A DNA stretch of 24,643 nt from Candidatus Micrarchaeota archaeon (GTDB lineage: Archaea > B1Sed10-29), in NCBI GenBank assembly GCA_964388265.1, contig CAYLXZ010000011.1, positions 1-24,643 of the forward strand, read 5' to 3'. Of the stretch, positions 1,262 through 24,478 are shown one piece after another. Both the position numbers and the translations under genes were made by a program. How positions within the stretch are numbered: position 1 is the first letter of the stretch; each line of letters opens with the position of its first letter. The notes beneath the pieces are model-generated. The model was not told the DNA's origin. It made no database searches and was given only the letters and a program-made list of their open reading frames with translations.

Positions 1262-2554
1262 ATGCCCCCATTCGATGAGATAAAGGAAAACATCCCCCAC
1301 ATCATAGCGATCATAGCCCTAGCACTAGTTCTATTAACCGCTTTAACCAAGTTCGGATACATGAGATGCGATGATGTACCAGGGTTCTGCGGAATATACT
1401 ATGGAATATTCGGGGAACCAAAAGTAGCGATAGTACACGGAGAAGGAGCAATAGGAAAACCAGAAGTCCTCAGAGACTCACTGGGAAAGACAACAGTCTT
1501 CCCCACCTATATGAACATAGATAACGTTCAGTCAACCGGGATACTCGGCAGCTACGACGTAGTGATAGTAGAAGGACCAAAGAAGATGTCCACCAAGACC
1601 CTACGCGTATTCGCAAACTACGTGAAGAAAGGAGGGAAACTAGTATGGGTCGGAGACGCAGGCACACAACTAGGTGAAAACGACTACATATGCAGACAAC
1701 CCAAGATAGCCTACATAAACCAGATAACGAAGAAAGTTCCCTACAACTACTCCAAAGGAAGCTACAACTACTCCGAGGAAACCGCGAATATCACGGAATG
1801 CGGTAACTGGGTAACACTGTCCAGTGGGCCAGGTGGACAGCTCAACGACCCAGAGAAACTAGAAGGTGGTATCTGCGGAAAAACATTCGGAGAAGTAGTT
1901 GACACATTCCACGACATAAACCAAGAAGTGCGCGATGACGCTACCTCGGGAGAACTCGAACTATGCCAAGAAGTAGACAACCCATACCGAGTCAAGAACG
2001 TGGAAGGAATCGAAGAATGCATCTCACATCTTAACAGCAGTGGATTAGAGGTCACGGAAGAAAACGCCAACAAAAACTGCTCCGCAGGAAACAACTACTG
2101 GAACAGAGGACCATCACTAACCGAAACAGGTGAAAAAGTCCAAGGATATGACTTCTCAACAGGAGTACTAGGAGTACAGTACCTCGGAGATATAAGCAAA
2201 GAAAAAGGATCATTCGAACTCGATCCAGTTAACCGAGACCACCTACTCACATCAGGATACACAGCAAGGCTAGAAATGAGTTACTTCTTCAAAAACACAG
2301 AATCTACCTACAACTACTCCAAGGTAGATACCGTTCCACTGGAACTTAGAAACGAAGTAGTATTCACCCTATCTAAACCAGGAGGAGATAACTGGCCAGC
2401 GGTAGTGGTATCAAACCCCACAGGTCCAAGTATCCAAGGAAGAGGAAACGTGGTTTACTACGCCTTCCCACCAGAGATAGGTTACTGGGAAGGATCTCAG
2501 GGAAAAGGATCCAACCTTCTCTACAATCTAGTTGATTTCATGATTCCAAAATGA
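1262..2554 (+). CDS. membrane-anchored protein, class I GATase-like/ThuA-like fold with a Cys-rich insertion (paralog 1 of 3)
   Basis: N-terminal TM; YDVVIVEG...YVKKGGKLVWVGDAG; C-terminal GNVVYYAFPP; many Cys and N-x-S/T sequons. Confidence 0.7.
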   Translation: MPPFDEIKENIPHIIAIIALALVLLTALTKFGYMRCDDVPGFCGIYYGIFGEPKVAIVHGEGAIGKPEVLRDSLGKTTVFPTYMNIDNVQSTGILGSYDVVIVEGPKKMSTKTLRVFANYVKKGGKLVWVGDAGTQLGENDYICRQPKIAYINQITKKVPYNYSKGSYNYSEETANITECGNWVTLSSGPGGQLNDPEKLEGGICGKTFGEVVDTFHDINQEVRDDATSGELELCQEVDNPYRVKNVEGIEECISHLNSSGLEVTEENANKNCSAGNNYWNRGPSLTETGEKVQGYDFSTGVLGVQYLGDISKEKGSFELDPVNRDHLLTSGYTARLEMSYFFKNTESTYNYSKVDTVPLELRNEVVFTLSKPGGDNWPAVVVSNPTGPSIQGRGNVVYYAFPPEIGYWEGSQGKGSNLLYNLVDFMIPK

Positions 2555-2580
2555 CATCTCTAAAAAACATCTCTAAAAAA
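2555..2580 (+). repeat. 13-bp tandem duplication CATCTCTAAAAAA x2
   Basis: Directly visible at 2555-2567 and 2568-2580, right after the stop codon. Confidence 0.8.
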
Positions 2581-2591
2581 GTAAATTTAAT

Positions 2592-2605
2592 GAAAAGTTA
2601 TATAA
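2592..2605 (+). promoter_or_regulatory. BRE-TATA promoter for the 2647 and 3484 genes
   Basis: GAAAAG-TTATATAA about 40 bp before the ATG. Confidence 0.6.
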
Positions 2606-2646
2606 ATACCCGGTGAATAAATTAACTAGAAATAGAGGATGATAAC

Positions 2647-3477
2647 ATGGCAAATTACTACGGTGGACCGGAAGGAAGTCAATGGAAAAAGAAATACGAG
2701 TTCACAATACCTATCTTACTCCTTATACTGGTAGTAGGGGTACTAGCCTGGCAAGCAGGATGGCTAACTAACATACCAGTAATAGGAGGACTATTCGGAG
2801 GACAAGAAGTAGTAGACGTAATGATAATAGGAGAAGACGACCAAGTAACCCATACACTAGACGAAGTAAAAGTAGGAAGACCAATAAACTACAAGACAGT
2901 AAGCAAAAAGGAAATAAACGATATCAGAGACGCCTCATACCTAGATGACTACGAGTTATTCATACTAACAGAAAACGTAGGCAATGAAACAGGAGAACTA
3001 CCAAACCTATTCAGAGACTACTTATCCCAAAGACTCGGAGACGGAACAGACCTGATCATGTACGGAGTAGCAGGAAGCAGAGGAACAACAGGAACAGAGA
3101 TAAACGGATGGGTACAACATGGGATGGACAGCTACGTTCCAGTAACCTGCCCGAGCGTAGGAGCATGCGCAACAAACAAAACAACCCATGGAACAGAAAT
3201 AACCACGCTTAAAATAACGGAAATTAACCACGATATACTGAAAGAGTTCGGAGTAACTACGGACTTCACAGGACCAACACTAGAATACAAGAAAGTGAAC
3301 TCAAAAGACGGGTCAAATACACTAGCCAACATAGAAGTAGAAACACAGGACGAAACCGCGACACCAGGAATAGTGGAAAAATCCTATGGAATGGGCGGAA
3401 ACGCAGTGTACTTTGCGTACCACCCATCAAAAACTCCGGTTGTATTTAAAAACACTATAGAATATCTAGCAGGGTGA
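2647..3477 (+). CDS. membrane-anchored GATase-like-fold protein (paralog 2 of 3)
   Basis: TM IPILLLILVVGVLAW; YLDDYELFILT; GTDLIMYGVAG; GGNAVYFAYHP; SD GAGGATGA. Confidence 0.7.
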   Translation: MANYYGGPEGSQWKKKYEFTIPILLLILVVGVLAWQAGWLTNIPVIGGLFGGQEVVDVMIIGEDDQVTHTLDEVKVGRPINYKTVSKKEINDIRDASYLDDYELFILTENVGNETGELPNLFRDYLSQRLGDGTDLIMYGVAGSRGTTGTEINGWVQHGMDSYVPVTCPSVGACATNKTTHGTEITTLKITEINHDILKEFGVTTDFTGPTLEYKKVNSKDGSNTLANIEVETQDETATPGIVEKSYGMGGNAVYFAYHPSKTPVVFKNTIEYLAG

Positions 3478-3483
3478 TAAAAA

Positions 3484-4368
3484 ATGGCTACATATGGCGG
3501 ATACAGCACAAAAAGCGACACTAGGAAATACCTAGAGGGAATAATCCCAATAATCATCTTAGTGCTAATAGGAGTAGTAATAGCAGCTAAAATGGGATGG
3601 ATAAGCGGAATACCTTTCCTAGGAGATATGTTCGGAGGAGGATCAGTACAAATAGCTGTGATAGGACAGTTATCCGGTGGAAACACGGAAGTAAGCGCTC
3701 AGTATCTAGAAGATTATTTCAATTCACCAGAAGCCCAGTCGTATGAATTCCAGGAAGTAGAGTTTGATCCAGAAACAGCTAAATACAGTGGAGAAAAACT
3801 ATTAAATCAATTTGATATGGTTATACTAGCAGGAGAAAGAAACTTCTCACGTCCAGTGAAAGAAGGAATAGGAAACTACATTAAAGGAGGAGGAAAACTA
3901 GTTGTAATTGGAGACGCAGCAATAAATGATCCTAATGATCCACTGGTGCTCGGGTGGAACGTTGACGAGATGGCTGGAACCTTCCCAGTAGCCCTTGAAT
4001 ATGACCTAAGTAAGGAAGATATTGATGAACCAAAGACACTGATAGGAGACTTAACATTCTCCTTCACAACTATAGATCATCCGATCTATGAGAATACAGG
4101 GTACCCTATGGAAAGTAACTTCAGCGACCTTGAGGGAGTTCACAAAGAATGCAGTGAACACCTCCACGTAATCCCAATAATGCCTCAAGGAGGAGACATC
4201 CTAGGAGTTATAGAAGGAGAAATTGATGGAGAGGAAGGATCTAAGACAATACTTGCTATCGCAGAGAAGAAAACTTCCTTCGGTGGACATGTAGCTTACT
4301 TCTCGTATGACCCTGGATGTACAAGAGGACTCTGGACATCTACGGTTAACTACATGGTAGGAAGATAA
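3484..4368 (+). CDS. membrane-anchored GATase-like-fold protein (paralog 3 of 3)
   Basis: TM IIPIIILVLIGVVIAA; LNQFDMVILAG; YIKGGGKLVVIGDAA; DHPI; GGHVAYFSYDP; 6 bp after paralog 2. Confidence 0.7.
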   Translation: MATYGGYSTKSDTRKYLEGIIPIIILVLIGVVIAAKMGWISGIPFLGDMFGGGSVQIAVIGQLSGGNTEVSAQYLEDYFNSPEAQSYEFQEVEFDPETAKYSGEKLLNQFDMVILAGERNFSRPVKEGIGNYIKGGGKLVVIGDAAINDPNDPLVLGWNVDEMAGTFPVALEYDLSKEDIDEPKTLIGDLTFSFTTIDHPIYENTGYPMESNFSDLEGVHKECSEHLHVIPIMPQGGDILGVIEGEIDGEEGSKTILAIAEKKTSFGGHVAYFSYDPGCTRGLWTSTVNYMVGR

Positions 4369-9751: not shown

Positions 9752-9811
9752 GCTTTAAGGTTAATCCAAAGTATTATATTAGAAAATCTTTTTTCTAAAC
9801 CAGTGATTCAG

Positions 9812-10327
9812 ATGACTGGAAAAAAAGATTTAGGGGGAAAATTCGATGAACTAGTCTTAAGAGAGGTATGGGGCGAAGAGGCAGAGGAATATCTTGAAAA
9901 ATACGATGGAGATCCGACAAAATCTCTAGATGCGGCGCATTTAGATGAAATACGTTCCCAAGAAGAGATTGAGGAACTCCTTGAAAAATACGACCAGGAC
10001 ATAGTAAAAGCGTTTAACGCTGCAATGCTCGAAGAAAAATACCCTAGAGAAGCAGATGAATACCTTGAAAAATACGATGGAGATCCAATAAAAGCTCTTG
10101 ATGCAGCTGACTTACATCACGAATACCCTGAAAAGGCTGAGCAATACCTCGAAGAATACAATGGAGACCCAAAGAAGGCGTGGATCGCAGCTCTCTTGGA
10201 ACATGAATACCCAGAAGAAGCTGAAAAACTACTTGAAAAATACAATGGAAATATAGTGAAAGCTCATAGCGCTGCAAGCTTAAAGGAAGAGTACCCTGAG
10301 AAGTACAGGGAATTAATGAAAGAGTAA
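9812..10327 (+). CDS. acidic helical tandem-repeat protein (five ~28-aa repeats)
   Basis: Repeats of YPEEAExYLEKYDGDPxKAxxAAxL; ATG at 9812 follows SD GTGAT. Confidence 0.8.
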   Translation: MTGKKDLGGKFDELVLREVWGEEAEEYLEKYDGDPTKSLDAAHLDEIRSQEEIEELLEKYDQDIVKAFNAAMLEEKYPREADEYLEKYDGDPIKALDAADLHHEYPEKAEQYLEEYNGDPKKAWIAALLEHEYPEEAEKLLEKYNGNIVKAHSAASLKEEYPEKYRELMKE

Positions 10328-10408: not shown

Positions 10409-13400
10409 TTAAACCGCTTGTATTTCATGTACCCTCTCTTCACCATCACGAGCGTAGATTACTTTCCACACTGGAACCAGCACTGGCTCCACGTTATCTA
10501 GATTGCAATCCATGTAGAGTGAGGGTAGTTGAGCTAGTTTATCTTCATCTACTTCTGTTTCTATGTTTTCTTTGACTGTGTGGAATGTGAATCTGTTTTC
10601 TATTCCTGTGAATTTAGGGTCATCCAGGTCTTCAGGTAGATCTATGGTTCTTTGGTACCTTCCGTCTCCGGTTTCCTGGATCAAGTTCTTCTCTTTGAAT
10701 TCCTTGATGTAGTTCCTTACGGTCTGTCGTGTTACATCTACTTTCTCTGTTAATTCACTTAAGTTATGAGCGTTCTTAAGAATCTGTAGCGTGTTTACCT
10801 TGTTTTTGTTCAAATCAAGTATCTGTTTCAGTGTGTCTGTTTGTTTGAGGTCTCCGTCCGTGTAGTACAGTGAGTAGTTGTTTCCTACTATGATGGAAAG
10901 GGGTTTGAATCCTTTGCTGAGTTTTTTCTCGTAGTTTACTTTGTAGGCTACTTTGTAGGTTAGCTCTAGGTTTTTTATTTCTTCTGATTCTCCGAATAAC
11001 CCTAGTTTCTTCTTTTTTCTTTTCTTGTTAGCTATCTGTTCTGCTTTCTCTTCATCTATCCTTGGTTGGAACGCCTTCACTTCTTTTCCTTTGACTTCTA
11101 GGTCTTGTTTTTCTTCGAATTTAGGTACCTGTAGTTTTCCGTCGACCAAGTTGCAGTTTTTCTCGGTTGTGAGTTTATCCACTACTTTGTCGGAGTCTAT
11201 CTCTATGTCGTAGCGTCTTGACATCAGGTCAGTTATTTCATCTATTCTGGATAGAGGTATTTCCCCTGTTTCTTGAAGTTTCTGGTAGGATAGATCCACG
11301 ACCATTCCCATAACTTTCTCTGGATCGGTTTCTTCGTCTAGTTCAACGCTCTGTGTTTCTCTTCCTTCATGTTGACTTAGCCTTGGTCTTACTTTTATTG
11401 GGAAGGCTCTGTCGGTTTCTTCGGATCTGTCTCCGACTAATGCAACTCCTACTGGTAGGTCTTTGAAGAATTCTTCTTCCTTGTATTCGCTTGGAACTTT
11501 TGTAGGTATTCTTTTCTGAACTTCTTTTATATCTTTGTCGAATATGAGTTTATGGCTCATCAGGATATCCATCTGTGACATTACTTTGGTGTCTATAGCG
11601 CTAGGTTGCTGTGTTGCTAGCACCATGCTGCATCCTGGTCTACGTCCTTGTTTAACGTACTCTATTATTGGCTCGGTGGCTGCTGTTTTTGATGATCCTG
11701 ATGGAACGAGTGTGTGTGCTTCGTCTATGAATATCCAGGTTGGTGGGATCTCTACATCCATTAGTTCGTCTATTGATTCTAGTTCGTATTTGTCCATTGC
11801 GGCTTTTCTTGTAACTATTTTCCTTGCGTTCAGCACTTTCCTGGCTAGTATGCCTATGACTAGTGAGGCTACGTTTTCTTCTAGGAATGAGGTGTCTATG
11901 ACTGAGACTTTTCCTTCTTGAGCTATTTCTGCTAGGCTGGTTCCTGTTTCTGAGAGTACTCCCCAGTTCTTAGCGGCTTCGAACCTTGATATCAGGGCTC
12001 TTCTGGTTCCTTTGGTGTATCCTTCTTCCTTGCTGGTTAGTTCTTCGTTGTTTCGAATTGTTTCTATTAGGTCCCTGATGCTGTAGTTGTTTTTCTTCTG
12101 TTCGGTCTTCTCTATTGCTTTCTCTAGCAGCAGTCCAGTTGGTGAGAACCTCTTCAGGTCGAAAGTTAGGCACCAGTCGTCTGTGGTGAGTTCGCTTGGT
12201 CTTATGGAGAATAGCTTGTCGTAGGTGTCGCTTGGAACCTCGTCCTTCAGTCCTAGTGGTATGAATACCTCTGTTTCCTCTATTCCACGTGGCTCGAGAC
12301 CCCATTCTCCAAGCATCTCGATCTCTTCGTTCTCCTTGTTCGGTTGGTTCATGCTCCAGAATATACCTATGGGGTCTATTATGATTGAAGCAACGTTAGG
12401 GTTACGTATTGTTAACTCCTCGGCTATACAGGCCGCGGAATAGGAGTTGTGTGATATTACTCCACCATTATCTCCTGCTATGAAGTTATGTGTTCCTTTT
12501 ACCGTTATATCGTATACATATCCTTGGTAGGGAACTTCTTTTATTTCAGTGATTTTGTCCCAGTAGATACTGCTCTTTGCTAGTTTTTCTAATTCTTCTA
12601 TTTTACCTCGGCTTTTCTGGAGTTTCTTGCTGTATGTTTGTCTCAGTTCTTCTGTGAGTGCTTTCATTTGGTTTTTGTCTACTTTACCGAGAAGTTCTTT
12701 TCCTGAGGCTGAAGTGATGTTGAATTTATCTATAAGGTTTTTCCAGGTAATGTTGGTGGATTCCACTGCTTTTATTATTGTTTTATCTTTTGAGTTATTT
12801 TCTAAGTTGTTTTTTATGTTTTTCATCTTTTCTAGGTGTTTTTTACAGTTTTCAAGGATTTTAAGGAGCATTTTTCTGCTTGGGTAGTAGTCTTCTCTTT
12901 CGTAGCTGAAGATTGTGGATCTTGATTTATTTGGTGATATGTCTTTGCCTTTTATTCCAAGGGTTTCTCTTAACTCTTTTAGTTGGGAACCGATTTTAGG
13001 CACTACATCGAAGTTTGGATTGGATTCCTTTTCAAGGTGTTTGCCTAGTCTTCTTGACTTTTTCTGTATTTTGAAGCCTATTTCTTTTTGGAATTGCTGT
13101 AAATTGTTTTTTCCATTTATCTCAATTGAGTAGTATTTTCTCTTGATCTGTTTTTCAGTGTTGGTTGCGCATTTTTCTTTTTTTGTAACGGAGGACTGTA
13201 TATTAAACCTAAGAAGGAGGTAAGATAATTTGTTAGCTATTTTTTCACTTGCTGTAGAAATTTCTATTAAGGGTCTTGTTTTTGATACATAAGCTTCACA
13301 GTCACAGTAGGTTCTAAGGAATGTCCTCACTGTCTCGTTGTCGCTTTTCACTATGGGGGTAGGGATATCTTTTTCTCGAGATTTTGTTCCTGGTTTGAAC

Positions 13401-14300
13401 CCTGTTTCTTTTAGGATTCTTTCCAGGGGTCGAGAGTCTATGTAGTAGTCGTTGGTCTTTGTTTCTTTGGGCTTTAATCCGAATAGTTCTTGGGTGAGTT
13501 TCTTGTATTCTTTGGTTAGTGTTTCATCTTGGTTTGTGAATATTGTTCTATATGTGCGTCCGGTATCTTGATCTGTTCCTTCTGCTATGATGTATGCTAG
13601 GAATTTAGCGAATTTTTCATTAATTTTTTTAGGAATCTTGATTGGTTTAGAGTTGCTGGATAGTCTTTGGTAGTTGTTGTCGAAGGAATTGGTTTTCTTC
13701 TGGTTTAGTATGTATTTGGCGTGGGAGGGCGATGAAGTCCTCTTCTTTAAGTTTCTCTGTTTCTTTCCATGTTGTTTTCTCGTTTATTGTAAGGAGAGGA
13801 TGTGTTTTCGTGGTTGTTATCTCTTTACCTGTCTTTGTCTTGATCTTTATTAATTTCTCATTTACTTTCTTCCTGTAAACATGTGTGATTTCTTTTGTTG
13901 TGGTTTTAAAATCTTCATTGAGAGCAGGAATTTTTATTTCTTCGTTTGATTTCACAAGTTTTTCTTTTTCTGTATCCTGAACAACTGTTCCTGTTCCTTC
14001 TACATTTTTGAATATATCTTCTATCTTCTTTAGTTCTCCAGATTCTGTTAGAACTTTTTCCCCGGGTTTCAAGCATTTTCCACTGCCTCTAGCTCCGAAT
14101 ATCCCTACTACATGTGGGGAAACCGCGTCCATGTATATGTGTTGACCGTAGTTCTCCGTGTCAACTGATTTACCTAGTAATAGAGCTCCGTCTTCCCCGT
14201 ATTCATCGTGGATAGAGCTCTTTCTCCCTATGTAGCCTTTGGATTCATCATCCTCCAGAATATCCAGATCTTCATCTGTTCTAGCCTTGAAGTCACTCAT
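10409..14300 (-). CDS. HerA/FtsK-like (DUF87) ATPase with C-terminal winged helix; intein-containing and frameshifted (joins ORFs 13647-14309 and 10409-13351)
   Basis: Walker A GARGSGK|intein|SYS; IIDPIG; Walker B IFIDEAH; KQGRRPG.SMVLATQQP; wHTH LSELTEKVDVTRQTVRNYIKEF. Spliced length is about 753 aa from ATG 14300. Confidence 0.85.
12446..14075 (-). mobile_element. intein with LAGLIDADG homing endonuclease and HTH insertion
   Basis: Starts CLKPGEKV; block B ITTTKTHPLL; LAGLIDADG motifs FLAYIIAEG (upstream of the ORF-track start, same frame) and FLRTYCDCEA; ends VYDITVKGTHNFIA...ISHN followed by Ser. Length 1630 nt = 3n+1. Confidence 0.93.
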
Positions 14301-14394
14301 CTCAATCACTTAAGATAAAGGGAATCCATCCTTAAAATTCAAAGGGTTTATTTAACGTGGGTACTTTTAACTAAATGGAAAAGAAGGGTATAAT

Positions 14395-19754: not shown

Positions 19755-20531
19755 ATGAACTCCCCAGAGAATTCTCTGAAGACACTGAAGAAATCAATCA
19801 AGCAAATACCGGATAAACTATCCGAAAAACAAGAACTCTACAATCTAACTAGATTCACAGCTATACTAGCCATAGCAGCGATAGCACTCTTCTACCTCTC
19901 ATCACTCAACCTAAAGATGGAGTTTACAAGAAGACAAGTAGCAATACAGACCACAGGAGTACTCCAACTTACAGGAATCAACAGCAGCTTCTACCCCCAC
20001 TCAGCAATGATTCCAAAGAACTCCGAAGCGCTACCAGAAGCAAGGCAGAAGTTCCTTAACCTCGGATTCCGAGAGATACCAAGAGAAAACACAACCCAGT
20101 TCCTCTCAGGACCACTTCACCCACAGAAACAGGAAGTATACAACTCCTACGTTCAGAACCTCAAAGAACAGGGAAACCGAATCTACACCTCCCCAGCCAT
20201 GATAACAATTCAGAACCCTAGAAAAGGGATCAAGCCGTTTCAAGTGAATCTAGTACCCGAATGTGTGGGTTGGATAGGTATGTTCGCAGTGATAGCGCTT
20301 ATAATAGCCTACCCAGACGCCGATAAAAAAGAAAGATTCCTAGGAATAATTCTATCCATACCACTAATCCACTTAATGAACATAGTGAGACTATCCACCA
20401 CGATATATGCAGGATGGAGCATGGGAAAACAGACACTGCACCTCGTGCACGATGTGCTCTGGAAAACAATACTCATAATCTGGGCACTCATACTATGGAT
20501 AATCTGGATAAAATACATAGTGGAAAAATAA
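19755..20531 (+). CDS. archaeosortase/exosortase family protein
   Basis: Catalytic-type residues V..ECVG, NIVR and HDVLW set in a multi-TM C-terminal half. Confidence 0.85.
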   Translation: MNSPENSLKTLKKSIKQIPDKLSEKQELYNLTRFTAILAIAAIALFYLSSLNLKMEFTRRQVAIQTTGVLQLTGINSSFYPHSAMIPKNSEALPEARQKFLNLGFREIPRENTTQFLSGPLHPQKQEVYNSYVQNLKEQGNRIYTSPAMITIQNPRKGIKPFQVNLVPECVGWIGMFAVIALIIAYPDADKKERFLGIILSIPLIHLMNIVRLSTTIYAGWSMGKQTLHLVHDVLWKTILIIWALILWIIWIKYIVEK

Positions 20532-20594
20532 GAAAGGTTATAAAAAAAGAAACCTTATTCAATAAACAACTAAGAAAGTCAAGGGAGCTACACC

Positions 20595-22532
20595 ATGACC
20601 AATAAAAAATCCAAGGCAGATGAACTCAAAGAAAGACAGAAAGAACTAAACAAAAAACTAGAAGAGCTAGAAGAAGGATCCGAAGCAGAAGAACTAGAAG
20701 AAATACTCCAAGAAGACTTCAGAGAAAACAAAGAAATAGCCGAGAAGATAGACAGACTCACAGAGATACTAAAAGAAGCAGCAGAAGAGGAAGAAGAAAC
20801 AGAGCTAGAAAATATGATGGATAGCATCATGAACTCACAGATGAAGCTAATAGAAGAGATAAAAGATATCAAGGAAGAGAGCAAAGGACCATCCACAGAT
20901 CTCGAAGAAAAAATAGATAATCTTAACAAAGCAATACACGAACTACCTGATGAAAAGAAGCTGGATACATTTGAAAAAGAAGTCTCCAACCTCGAGGAAA
21001 AACTCAACGGAATAGATGAAAAACTAGAAAAAGAACCCAAAGGATCCAAGACAACGCTAAAAACAATGAAGAAGGACCTGGATTCCCTACAGGAACAACT
21101 AAACAATCTCCCCCAAGAAATAGCCGAAGAAGAAGGAAAACACGGAGAAATAGAGAAAAAAACCCAGAAACTGATGAATCAAGTTCAAGAGATGGATAAT
21201 ACCCTTGAAGAAACCGAGCTAGGTAAACTTGAAGAGATAACCGAACAGCTCGAAAGCCTACAGAAAAAACAAGAAGAAAGAAGAAAAAGCAAGATCGACA
21301 CAGTAGTGCAGTCCTTGGACAAAATAGAGAAAGAATTAGAATCCAAAGAAAAACAAGGAACATCAAACCAGCTATCTAAATCAATAACCAAACTGCATGA
21401 GAAAATAGATTCAATAGACAAACAGATAGATAAAATAGAAAGCTCAACCGATCAAGAAACAGTTAAATACTTCGAAGCCGTGAGCAAAGATCTATCCGAA
21501 GTGGAAGAAACCCTAGAAAACATAGAAGAACACTTAGGAGAATCTCACGTATCGGAGAAGACAATGAGGAGTACAAGGGAAAAAATAAAGGAAGCTAAAA
21601 AAGCAACCGAGAAAGCGAAAGAAGAAAAACCAAAAGAAGAAGATGTGGAAAAACTGAAATCCAAACAGAAATCAGTGAAACCCCCGAAAGCAAAAGCAGT
21701 GAAAGAAGAAGAAAAAGAAAAACTAAAAGAAGCAAAAGAGAAACTGAAAAAAGCAGAAGAAAAAGCAAAGGAAAAACAACCAGAGATCAAAGGCACAACC
21801 TGCCCAATATGTGGAGAAGAGTTCGACAGCGAAAAAGGAATGAAGATACACAAATCCAAATCACACGAAGAAGGAGAAGAAAAGTCAAGAAAGGTCAAAT
21901 CAGAGGAAGTCAAGGAACTCAGAGAAAGGCTGGAAAAACCACTTGAAAAAATAAAGAAAAACGAAGAAGAATACGAAAAAACACAGAAAGAAGCCGAAGA
22001 GATGAAGAAACACGCAGAAGGAGTGAAAGAGAAAAATAAAGCCAAGTTAAATGAATTCGTAGATGAAATGGATCCTCAAGAAGAGATAGAAATCAAGAAA
22101 GTATCAGAAAAGCTCGACATCTCCCAAAAAACCACAATAAATTACCTTAAAGAAAAAGTAAAAGATAGAAAAGACCTCGAACTAAAAGGAACAGGCATCA
22201 TGAGTAAACTCCTAAGGAAAAAACCCAAATTACTCAAGATAGAGACTGAAAAGTGCCCAATATGCGAGAAAGAGATGAAAGAAGAAAAAGTAGATGATCA
22301 TCTCAGAGGAGAACACGAAGAATACAAAGAAATCGATGAAATAGTAGATAAAGTTCCATTAAACAAGAATGTAGATATAAAGAAAGCCGGGGAAGACCTA
22401 GATCTCTCCAAAGAAGCCATGGTCAAGATACTGAAGGTCTACAAAGACAGGAACCCAGATAAGATAAAGCTGCTTGATGAAAAGTCAAAATCCACGGAAA
22501 AAAATCCAGAGTACTTCATAAAGAAAAAATAG
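20595..22532 (+). CDS. long coiled-coil protein with two C2H2 zinc fingers and two HTH-like modules
   Basis: About 400 aa of E/K-rich heptads; CPICGEEFDSEKGMKIHKSKSH and CPICEKEMKEEKVDDHLRGEH; BRE-TATA AGAAAGG-TTATAAAA at 20531-20545. Confidence 0.75.
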   Translation: MTNKKSKADELKERQKELNKKLEELEEGSEAEELEEILQEDFRENKEIAEKIDRLTEILKEAAEEEEETELENMMDSIMNSQMKLIEEIKDIKEESKGPSTDLEEKIDNLNKAIHELPDEKKLDTFEKEVSNLEEKLNGIDEKLEKEPKGSKTTLKTMKKDLDSLQEQLNNLPQEIAEEEGKHGEIEKKTQKLMNQVQEMDNTLEETELGKLEEITEQLESLQKKQEERRKSKIDTVVQSLDKIEKELESKEKQGTSNQLSKSITKLHEKIDSIDKQIDKIESSTDQETVKYFEAVSKDLSEVEETLENIEEHLGESHVSEKTMRSTREKIKEAKKATEKAKEEKPKEEDVEKLKSKQKSVKPPKAKAVKEEEKEKLKEAKEKLKKAEEKAKEKQPEIKGTTCPICGEEFDSEKGMKIHKSKSHEEGEEKSRKVKSEEVKELRERLEKPLEKIKKNEEEYEKTQKEAEEMKKHAEGVKEKNKAKLNEFVDEMDPQEEIEIKKVSEKLDISQKTTINYLKEKVKDRKDLELKGTGIMSKLLRKKPKLLKIETEKCPICEKEMKEEKVDDHLRGEHEEYKEIDEIVDKVPLNKNVDIKKAGEDLDLSKEAMVKILKVYKDRNPDKIKLLDEKSKSTEKNPEYFIKKK

Positions 22533-22540
22533 GTTAAACC

Positions 22541-22957
22541 ATGAATAAAGAGGAAGGATCCTTCTCAGCCCTAGGAACCATGTTTTTAGTATGGATATCG
22601 ATAACCGCAGCGATTGGAGTATACTACTGGGCGGAAGGGCTTAACACCCAACCCAATGTAGCTACTAAATCTGTAAGAGCTTTCACAGTGGAAGGCTGCG
22701 ATATAAACCCCGCTGGAAACCCTAAAGTAGAGGTTAGAAACGTTGGTTCACTCCCCATAAACAGATCTATTAAATTATATAACTCTCAAAAGAACTATAT
22801 TGGGTATCTGGATTTCTCTAAGGCCATAAATGGTAGTTTGGATCCAGGTGAAGCTGATTTCTTGGACGTAATGGAACTAAATGGGACATTAGAAGAAAAA
22901 AAGACTTATATATTACTCGGAGAAGGAGTGCCTGAAGTGAACTTTATGTGCCATTAA
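22541..22957 (+). CDS. type IV pilin-like protein (divergent paralog)
   Basis: EEG|SFSALG...IGVYYW; shares FT.E.CD, VRN.GS and TY....G.P.V.F.C with the two downstream pilins. Confidence 0.8.
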   Translation: MNKEEGSFSALGTMFLVWISITAAIGVYYWAEGLNTQPNVATKSVRAFTVEGCDINPAGNPKVEVRNVGSLPINRSIKLYNSQKNYIGYLDFSKAINGSLDPGEADFLDVMELNGTLEEKKTYILLGEGVPEVNFMCH

Positions 22958-22983
22958 CACAACTTTTATAAATAAGGATTGTC

Positions 22984-23154
22984 TTACTAGGATAGAGGTG
23001 ATAAGATATGGAAAAAGGTATCTCACCAGTGATAGCAGTCGTGCTATTAATTGCTATTGCAGTTATTTCTGCAGTAGGTGTCTGGTACTGGGTAGGAGGA
23101 CTAGCCAGCAAACCAGGAGGAGTCCAACAAGCGCAAACAGGATTCACAATAGAA
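22984..23154 (+). repeat. 171-bp perfect repeat, pilin 5' region (partner at 23463-23633)
   Basis: Base-by-base identity from TTACTAGGATAGAGG to TTCACAATAGAA. Confidence 0.93.
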
Positions 23155-23418
23155 AGCTGTGACACCACAGCTGGAGACCAAAAAGTACTAGTAAGAAACA
23201 CAGGCTCCACAGACCTTACTGGAAACGCATCAGTATACGATCAGAGCAATGAAGAGGTAGGAGTCCTTAGATTTGACAACGCTAGTAATGGTGAACTAGG
23301 TGTAAGCCAAGTAGAATATGTCAGATACGATAACATAACTGTTAACGGCAGCTTAGGTTCAGGAGAAACCTACACTGTAATTGAAGGTGGATTACCAACA
23401 GTACAGTTCACCTGTTAA
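23008..23418 (+). CDS. archaeal type IV pilin (class III signal peptide)
   Basis: MEKG|ISPVIAVVLLIAIAV; own TATA TTTTATAAA at 22964-22972; SD GAGGTGA. Confidence 0.92.
   Translation: MEKGISPVIAVVLLIAIAVISAVGVWYWVGGLASKPGGVQQAQTGFTIESCDTTAGDQKVLVRNTGSTDLTGNASVYDQSNEEVGVLRFDNASNGELGVSQVEYVRYDNITVNGSLGSGETYTVIEGGLPTVQFTC
23358..23414 (+). repeat. 57-bp perfect repeat, pilin 3' region (partner at 23816-23872)
   Basis: TTCAGGAGAAACC...CAGTTCACCTG is identical in both genes. Confidence 0.93.
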
Positions 23419-23486
23419 AGAGTTCCGTGAAAAACCACAAAAGGTTTATAAGTAGGAACGTGTTACTAGGATAGAGGTGATAAGAT

Positions 23487-23876
23487 ATGGAAAAAGGTAT
23501 CTCACCAGTGATAGCAGTCGTGCTATTAATTGCTATTGCAGTTATTTCTGCAGTAGGTGTCTGGTACTGGGTAGGAGGACTAGCCAGCAAACCAGGAGGA
23601 GTCCAACAAGCGCAAACAGGATTCACAATAGAAGACTGTGATACAGATGAAGACCAAGTACTAATAAGGAATACGGGCTCTATAGATATAGCGAGCAGTG
23701 CCTCGGTTTACAACTCCAGCAATGACGAGGTAGGAGCAATACAGATGAATGCCTCGGAACTCGTCCTAGGAGTAGAGGAAGTAGGATACAGAAACGTCAC
23801 AGGCGCTAACTTGACTTCAGGAGAAACCTACACTGTAATTGAAGGTGGATTACCAACAGTACAGTTCACCTGCTAG
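23487..23876 (+). CDS. archaeal type IV pilin (class III signal peptide)
   Basis: Same N-terminal 49 aa as the 23008 gene; own TATA TTTATAA at 23445-23451. Confidence 0.92.
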   Translation: MEKGISPVIAVVLLIAIAVISAVGVWYWVGGLASKPGGVQQAQTGFTIEDCDTDEDQVLIRNTGSIDIASSASVYNSSNDEVGAIQMNASELVLGVEEVGYRNVTGANLTSGETYTVIEGGLPTVQFTC

Positions 23877-23920
23877 AGAGACCGCGAGGTCTTTCAAACC
23901 TTGTTTTTTATTTATGTTTC
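23877..23920 (+). terminator. hairpin plus T-tract after the pilin genes
   Basis: AGACC-GCGA-GGTCT followed by TTGTTTTTTATTTATGTTTC. Confidence 0.55.
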
Positions 23921-24037
23921 TTGATCTAATTTTGATGTGTTTTAAGTTCTAGTTGAATCTGTCTCGATTTATCTTAACTTGCTCTATATTATATAAAAAG
24001 AGAAAGGGCCAGGGAGAGAGGGAGGTGGGTGGCTGAA

Positions 24038-24478
24038 TTACCCCTTGGCCCAGTAGAGAACCCTTTTTCCAGCGCGTTCCTTTTCAAGGAACCCTTTCTT
24101 GTACAGGGAGTTAAGTCTTGCGGAGGCGGCGTTTCTCCCTTTGTATCCGAGTGCGTCTTGAATTTCGGCTGCGTCGACTTTACCTTTGTCCTTTACGTGG
24201 TTGTACACTTTTTTATCAACTTTAGATAGTGTCTCTTCATTGGCTACTGTGTTTTTTTCTTTGTTTGAGTTTTTGCTCTCTCCTATTTCTTGGTGTAGTT
24301 CGTCTAGTTTATCTGTTATTTTCTTGAATAGTTCATTGGTTTTTTTTCTTTCTTTTGAGAGCCTGTACATCAGTAGACCAATGGTTTCTGGGTCGTTGAA
24401 CTCTTCTTTATCGTACTTCACGTCGAAGAGCATGTTCTGGAACTCTTCTTCCGTTTCATCCTGTGGATCGATACCCAT
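24038..24478 (-). CDS. coiled-coil plus winged-helix DNA-binding protein
   Basis: LSKVDKKVYNHV...AAEIQDALGYKGRNAASARLNSLYKKGFLEKERAGKRVLY. Confidence 0.8.
   Translation of the reverse strand: MGIDPQDETEEEFQNMLFDVKYDKEEFNDPETIGLLMYRLSKERKKTNELFKKITDKLDELHQEIGESKNSNKEKNTVANEETLSKVDKKVYNHVKDKGKVDAAEIQDALGYKGRNAASARLNSLYKKGFLEKERAGKRVLYWAKG

Follow-up and report, generated by a model that had tools for sequence, protein, structure and literature searches.

The window analysed here, a stretch of 24,643 nucleotides from a Candidatus Micrarchaeota archaeon, ends with two adjacent, complete type IV pilin genes that are identical in DNA at both ends and strongly diverged in between. The pattern is probably the outcome of concerted evolution, in which old tandem duplicates had their ends converted by general homologous recombination and their heads diverged. 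Judged from the codons, the flanks appear to have been homogenised by recombination and the heads not. The genome holding the window is small (726 kb), and its assembly is 82 % complete.

Three pilin-like genes close the window, all on the forward strand: 22541-22957, 23008-23418 (copy 1) and 23487-23876 (copy 2). The synteny markers of the locus are an exosortase/archaeosortase-like gene and a coiled-coil zinc-finger gene upstream (19755-22532, forward strand) and a convergent winged-helix gene downstream (24038-24478, reverse strand). The first pilin-like gene, overlooked in the initial annotation, heads the array directly after the coiled-coil gene. Its product of 138 aa is diverged (tblastn E 6e-23 to copy 1; 34 % aa identity with copy 1, dS saturated), and the gene is without conversion; neither a TATA box of its own nor a Pfam match was seen for it. 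Copy 1 encodes 136 aa. Its 5' identical block (22984-23154) holds the leader, the ribosome site, the class III signal peptide, the core helix, the linker and the start of the first strand (codons 1-49), its diverged centre (23155-23357) most of the beta-strand head, and its 3' identical block (23358-23414) the last two strands up to the final Cys codon. In copy 2, with 129 aa, the corresponding parts are at 23463-23633, 23634-23815 and 23816-23872. A TATA-like box (TTTATAA, 22965-22972) with putative promoter function stands before copy 1, outside the identical block, and that of copy 2 (23445) lies in a unique 48-bp spacer (23415-23462), which also contains the stop codon of copy 1. GAGGTGA ribosome sites are found at 22995 and 23474, and both reading frames are intact; the two copies are thus complete and each has its TATA box, unlike pilS, as the initial annotation had said. 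A stem-loop followed by a T run, terminator-like by consensus match only, lies 3' of copy 2 (23884-23914). The sigma-70 promoter scan is not applicable to archaeal promoters.

Elsewhere in the window, a HerA-like ATPase gene with an intein and a LAGLIDADG domain is split into two open reading frames on the reverse strand (13647-14309 and 10409-13351, together 10409-14309), suggesting a break inside the intein. A 174-aa acidic protein with about five 28-residue repeats and weak UBA-like Pfam matches is encoded at 9803-10327 (forward strand). Three successive membrane-anchored proteins with alike N-terminal layout, two of them with weak ABC_transp_aux matches, are encoded at 1262-4368 (forward strand) and are possibly a paralogous surface-protein cluster.

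The identity of the flanks is exact over 171 bp at the 5' side (22984-23154 and 23463-23633; 24 bp of leader plus codons 1-49) and over 57 bp at the 3' side (23358-23414 and 23816-23872), and the centres, of 203 and 182 bp, differ with indels, all as described in the initial annotation. Divergence begins at codon 50, one codon ahead of Cys51, and all N-x-S/T sequons, four in each copy, do lie in the centres (73, 91, 109 and 113 in copy 1; 76, 88, 103 and 108 in copy 2). Among the exact repeats of at least 40 bp in the assembly, the 171-bp block ranks second in length. The longest, of 633 bp (contig C13, 1-633 and 886-1518), lies in a glycine-rich, surface-protein-like open frame.

Codon statistics separate the blocks from the centre. 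Degenerate codons for identical residues match in 46 of 46 cases in the 5' block, compared to 19.6 expected from genome codon usage, and the last 19 codons have 18 synonymous matches with 8.6 expected. In the centre 14 of 32 synonymous codons match, which is the random level (13.5 expected). The difference from the centre is significant both for the 5' block (Fisher P 2e-9) and for the 3' end (P 2e-4). The dS is 0 in the 5' block and about 1.9 in the centre, a rough and saturated value, with a dN of about 0.43 and a dN/dS of about 0.23. The GC content is unremarkable (0.43 and 0.47 in the centres, 0.43 in the 5' block). Outside both blocks the copies are still homologous, yet diverged: the TATA-like box lies about 42 bp before the start in both but has different neighbours, and the stop codons are TAA and TAG. 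It follows that the duplication is old, whereas the identity is recent. Codon bias was rejected as the cause of the block identity, as usage predicts only 19.6 of the 46 matches observed. Since synonymous identity of 46 out of 46 is also beyond the reach of protein-level selection, recombination is required, as the initial annotation had argued. Its further proposal, that the exposed domain is swapped or homogenised, was right as regards recombination and wrong as regards homogenisation of the head: the synonymous sites of the head are saturated, and it was the conserved ends that were copied. Swapping of heads was not borne out either, with no silent donors in the assembly, no third centre among the contigs listed, a dN/dS below 1 and no integrase or reverse transcriptase found in the 82 % complete genome.

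Copies 1 and 2 are archaeal type IV pilins. Both exceed the Pilin_N (PF07790) cut-off of 25.2 bits (31.2 and 32.1 bits, respectively), and in the AlphaFold model (mean pLDDT 86) residues 7-33 are helical and seven strands form the head. The best match in the structure search, 8fk7, was modest (E 3.4e-4, TM 0.42); other archaeal pili and archaellum proteins were also in the top ten. Pilus ATPases, platform proteins and prepilin peptidases scored above cut-off on other contigs (C1, C3, C14 and others), away from the array, and a gene of the Rad51/RadA family is located on another contig. We anticipate that both pilins are expressed and co-assembled. The sequons are predicted sites at which the heads may be N-glycosylated. 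The STT3 family was not found in the 82 % complete assembly; it is present in 13 of the 18 genomes of the order, including all of the near-complete ones (8/8).

The tandem was tested against the reading that it is an assembly artefact, in which two strain alleles were set one after the other or the assembler fused nearly identical flanks. The read evidence consists of three runs (X1, X2 and X3) of one study, available as contigs only and at shallow depth. The contigs of X1 span 23125-23387 and 23604-23845, and another begins at 23843. Exactly these limits are expected if the repeats are truly exact, the words have 31 letters and the 3' block has two exits, and they support the tandem. In the same run the centres have depths of 8.6 and 6.1, compared to 3.9-10.7 for other single-copy pieces and 6.75 for the spacer bin. 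Both centres are at single-copy depth; the depths of two alleles would be expected to sum to that of the flanks. In addition, the spacer has its own diverged promoter, the 57-bp block would be too short for bubble merging at 55-letter words, and relatives have tandem arrays at the same place. In favour of an artefact, this is a metagenome assembly with 55-bp contig overlaps, coverage is only about 4-11, none of the listed contigs reaches across the whole locus, and the join from the spacer to the second 5' block was not among the displayed contigs. Run X1 is also probably the source sample and hence not independent. Bubble removal could erase single differences midway along the 171-bp block, and a few may have been merged in this way. 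An artefactual tandem as such is nevertheless highly improbable. Runs X2 and X3 reach at most 23 bases into either centre and so carry no information on variants; X2 covers 22915-23177 without a difference. Further centres between the same flanks, which the initial annotation had expected, were not seen: the contigs listed for the three shallow runs of this one study contain no third centre, and those of X1 no variant letters in either centre.

The same locus was recognised in relatives. Matches were obtained in 38 of the 61 genomes searched, none of which belongs to the species or genus studied here, and the pair is without a close orthologue that would date the duplication directly. Throughout the family and order the array follows the same coiled-coil gene, mostly precedes the same winged-helix gene and contains one to three pilins. 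In one relative, G001, the identity of the two copies extends over the entire gene (460 bp), and their flanks are diverged. In G015, copies a and c share an identical 5' end of 213 bp with another pilin in between, G021 has a 127-bp block with one mismatch, and G018 an 89-bp block; apparent blocks at offset -90 were left out as overlapping flank windows. At the beginning of locus L054, 101 bp from the 3' end of its own first pilin are repeated exactly. L062, of the same metagenome, closes with the first 33 pilin codons of L054 behind a different promoter; most simply, these would be the two ends of one repeat that broke the assembly. The contigs of L023, L047, L048 and L062 break off within the first 21-39 codons of a pilin, as would be expected where an identical 5' block is repeated, and the copy numbers in these assemblies are probably too low. 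Two pilins at this locus deserve mention, the sole one of G002 (L002:272-1114), which has a C-terminal extension (280 aa), and that of G005 (L003:1282-1677), which has an in-frame TGA after about 64 codons.

Synonymous identity in the 5' block was at least 96 % in 5 of the 12 within-locus pairs (4 of 11 without the genome of the window), and the mean of the between-locus pairs (n = 172) was 0.48. Two between-locus pairs reached 100 %, namely the same DNA entered twice and L054/L062. These counts take in only pairs with at most three residue differences in 30 codons, drawn from 135 pattern matches which gave 60 loci after removal of duplicates and 55 genes in which an aromatic motif follows the helix; the search pattern did not catch a G018 pilin whose N-terminus is altered, and the genomes are kin, the pairs not being independent trials. 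Seven of the 12 within-locus pairs have no long block. Short tracts in G024 and G026 match at 12 and 10 of 13 codons, respectively, compared to 5-9 between genomes.

Concerted evolution is recognised by a tract that is nearer to the paralogue with the rest of the gene nearer to the orthologue, and G018 and G024 fit this description. The 5' block of G018_a is closest to its own paralogue (0.94) and its head to a G019 pilin (73 % vs 43 %). In trees of 28 hand-picked genes, the majority of whose branches have low support (stars on 4 of 23 and 4 of 25), copies A and B of G024 join at 98/98 by their 5' blocks and are split by orthologue in the head tree. G015 is mixed: the head tree keeps a and c together (92/69, unstarred), and pairwise scores put a nearer to another species. 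Across the family the pilin N-termini are strongly conserved in protein, and the heads are generally fast-evolving. When loci L053 and L054 are compared, the head of the first pilin is 37 % identical and that of the second 57 %, compared to 95 % for the winged-helix protein, with a head dN/dS below 1. The degenerate DNA pattern for the conserved peptide had no matches in metagenome contigs. The protein search gave 26 matches, of which, besides the window's own two, the closest was 57 % identical.

The following course of events would account for these observations. Recombination of the RadA type between the neighbouring copies would copy DNA tracts from one gene into the other, and it is conversion that we infer as the molecular route. 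Tracts over the signal peptide, the core helix and the terminal strands would be tolerated or favoured, and would persist, given that the same peptidase has to process both subunits and that both have to fit into one filament core. The diverged head would escape, low similarity and indels stopping the tracts at its edges. Selection probably keeps two different heads, for which adhesion targets, glycan display or virus receptors are conceivable reasons. The pair in G001 may then represent the fully converted state and the present pair the state with an escaped head. Unequal exchange and loop-out should also be possible between the direct repeats, whose spacings are 479 and 458 bp, and would account for the one to three pilins of the relatives. 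As both genes are complete and have promoters of their own, a swap from flank to flank would do no more than exchange the promoters of the two heads. No new head can arise by exchange within the identical blocks; for this, a crossover within the centre, or import, would be required.

Import of a foreign head would likewise be expected to leave an abrupt boundary at codon 50. It is possible, although unlikely, that the pair was once fully homogenised and that one head was then replaced from a divergent donor (another strain or species, or a paralogue) by crossovers in the conserved flanks. The sharp borders, the full homogenisation seen in G001 and the low identity of the first pilin head between L053 and L054 beside a nearly unchanged winged-helix protein would all suit such an event. 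The head dS of the latter pair (0.86) is, however, within the range of neighbouring genes (0.41, and 1.02 in L053/L062), and fast protein evolution suffices. The genome itself also contains a transferred head: a secreted beta-propeller protein (PF09826; locus L101, contig C33, 2043-4397, reverse strand) carries a C-terminal pilin head, joined in frame and without the N-terminal helix. Such a fusion occurs in one of eight beta-propeller homologues of the class, and it means that pilin heads can move. This head was rejected as an active donor, as it is equally far from both centres (44 % aa identity with each), its 3' end differs too, and it has no exact 40-bp tract in common with them. No other donor was found, the nearest outside protein being the one at 57 % identity, and the GC content of the centres is ordinary. 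A recent duplication with very strong diversifying selection on the head alone, or identity due to codon bias or protein constraint, is exceedingly improbable. It would be in keeping with the conservation of the N-terminus across the family, but it is contradicted by the saturated synonymous sites and the dN/dS below 1 of the centre, by the diverged promoters and stops, by the excess of codon matches over the prediction from usage, and by the mean identity of only 0.48 with which the same peptide is encoded at other loci.

Programmed antigenic variation of the Neisseria pilE/pilS type, in which variant heads stored in an archive are frequently copied into the position between the flanks, would lead to the same conserved-variable-conserved layout between two Cys. 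The assembly was searched for its parts. The additional cassettes that the initial annotation had envisaged did not appear, BLASTN and tblastn on the 82 % complete assembly giving no further copy of either block. Silent copies truncated at the 5' end were not found in it by BLASTN, tblastn or the Pilin_N search (five matches), and both copies of the array are complete with promoters. Neither a reverse transcriptase (PF00078) nor a tyrosine recombinase/integrase (PF00589) was found in this 82 % complete genome, in which nothing qualifying as a diversity-generating retroelement or shufflon was seen. RNA-templated copying was rejected, as the 5' block begins about 10 bp before the likely transcript start, placed by TATA spacing, and no reverse transcriptase was found in the 82 % complete assembly. 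Other pilin homologues in the assembly are a weak N-terminal match on C14, the fused head on C33 and a further pilin, cut off after 24 codons at the end of C2 (locus L102, 1-73, reverse strand), with 18 differences in its 73 bases. That C2 ends at a repeat common to another contig of the bin was rejected, its terminal 55 letters being on no other contig. An X1 contig of depth 11 carries the five diagnostic letters of the C2 pilin, and two X1 contigs continue into other sequence behind 23123. As contigs with the C2 letters run into unassembled heads, at least one more pilin is missing from the assembly; this favours an archive and is the main gap in the negative cassette result. One of only two canonical G4 motifs of the assembly (24006-24029) lies 130 bp downstream of the array. 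In Neisseria a G-quadruplex and a small RNA start the pilE event, and the G4 lies upstream; the event also depends on a RecA-type recombinase, and the present genome has a RadA-family gene. As a trigger of this type the present motif was set aside as improbable, because of its downstream position and because it is better read as a hairpin arm of the winged-helix gene: its complementary strand forms a C-rich arm, paired with the last winged-helix codons in 6 of 6 family loci (a seventh row, from a wrong region, is left out), and the four-run motif is absent from all 14 other distinct flanks. Taken by itself, the hairpin does not reach significance (z -1.26). Rfam gave no matches at 22900-24200. 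The whole G-rich element (23998-24051) is conserved where the winged-helix gene ends at the loci of the family, and with the last codons of that gene it forms a hairpin ahead of a T run; it holds the word GGAGGTGG, the complement of which resembles an anti-ribosome-site sequence. Programmed variation is also disfavoured by the centre itself, the dN/dS and synonymous saturation of which indicate long separation and not recent shuffling, and by the uniform centre letters of the X1 contigs listed. It is thus very unlikely, and the sequences so far give no sign of a dedicated Neisseria-style switching system. A broader view is that the pilin array at the sortase/coiled-coil/winged-helix locus is, across this DPANN class, a recombination-driven contingency locus that works without silent cassettes or a dedicated recombinase. 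Conversion would keep the flanks identical, and heads would be looped out, re-duplicated, fused to other surface proteins or replaced by foreign ones, by which a host-dependent archaeon would change its attachment or virus-receptor surface within populations. We regard this as rather unlikely; were such head exchange within a population true, it would be the first archaeal pilus-variation device.

Concerted evolution of old duplicates thus being the preferred reading, the process is one already known; what is new in detail is the lineage in which it occurs and its repeated appearance at one orthologous locus. In the literature covered, mostly open-access papers without supplements, no description of pilin gene conversion in DPANN archaea was found. 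A prokaryote-wide screen reported seven archaeal genes evolving in concert, all of methanogens, and the word 'pilin' is nowhere in its main text (PMC6053082); the word 'conversion' is absent from a 2026 survey of archaeal type IV filaments (PMC13705601). Concerted evolution of surface-filament genes thus seems to be undescribed in this lineage. The pattern singles out the head as the part on which a pressure to differ acts, and so as the likely host- or virus-binding surface of an archaeon with a small genome. It also implies that the pilin copy numbers of these genomes are underestimates, since such arrays break or collapse in short-read assemblies.

Identical ends are also ascribed to the archaellin genes of Halobacterium, for which the literature covered gave no confirmation at the DNA level. 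The other systems are compared here as far as the available parts of the cited reports describe them. Archaeal type IV pili are common virus receptors, and the tandem pilins of Natrinema (73 % identity) each form filaments (PMC12426801). The adhesion pilins PilA1-6 of Haloferax volcanii, the pilus of which (8fj5) was among the top fold matches, are likewise PF07790 proteins with an identical N-terminal hydrophobic domain and different heads (PMC7002104). Their identity is stated for a 30-residue peptide, the H-domain, whereas here it is at the DNA level, includes the leader and the 3' end, and concerns adjacent genes. The lpl cluster of Staphylococcus aureus also consists of tandem surface-protein paralogues that recombine at a conserved block (PMC2568036), but that block is central, the ends vary, and the case was made from many conspecific genomes.

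Neisseria pilE/pilS resembles the present pair in its conserved pilin N-terminus and Cys-bounded variable surface part (PMC4877100, PMC13463697). The Neisseria variation proceeds by gene conversion and needs silent pilS donors (PMC4877100). Here, in contrast, there are two promoter-bearing genes, no silent archive was seen in the 82 % complete assembly, the constant parts appear to have been converted instead of the variable ones, and no variant centre was seen among the contigs listed for the three shallow runs. Closer are pilA1/pilA2 of Sulfolobus islandicus, which are also two complete archaeal type IV pilin paralogues at one locus (PMC7217056, PMC9319562). They are identical in 7 of 12 strains, and their joint loss leads to virus resistance (PMC7217056). 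Recombination between them was inferred from an interval that occurs in both orientations (PMC7217056, PMC9319562); in the available text, reassortment was sought in resistant clones and not found (PMC9319562). That pair has inverted repeats and modest differences (26 positions in M16.4), whereas the present one has direct repeats and a saturated head between identical ends. The flagellin genes flaA/flaB of Campylobacter jejuni are, as here, tandem, complete and separately promoted filament genes. Their products are glycosylated, intragenomic recombination and concerted evolution have been reported for them, and a role in antigenic variation or phage escape has been proposed, although the available part of the report states that the recombination was not found in phage-escape mutants (PMC5126078). 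They differ from the present genes in encoding a bacterial flagellin and in being 95 % identical overall (PMC5126078). On present evidence, the locus described here works like flaA/flaB or pilA1/pilA2 and is not of the pilE/pilS kind.
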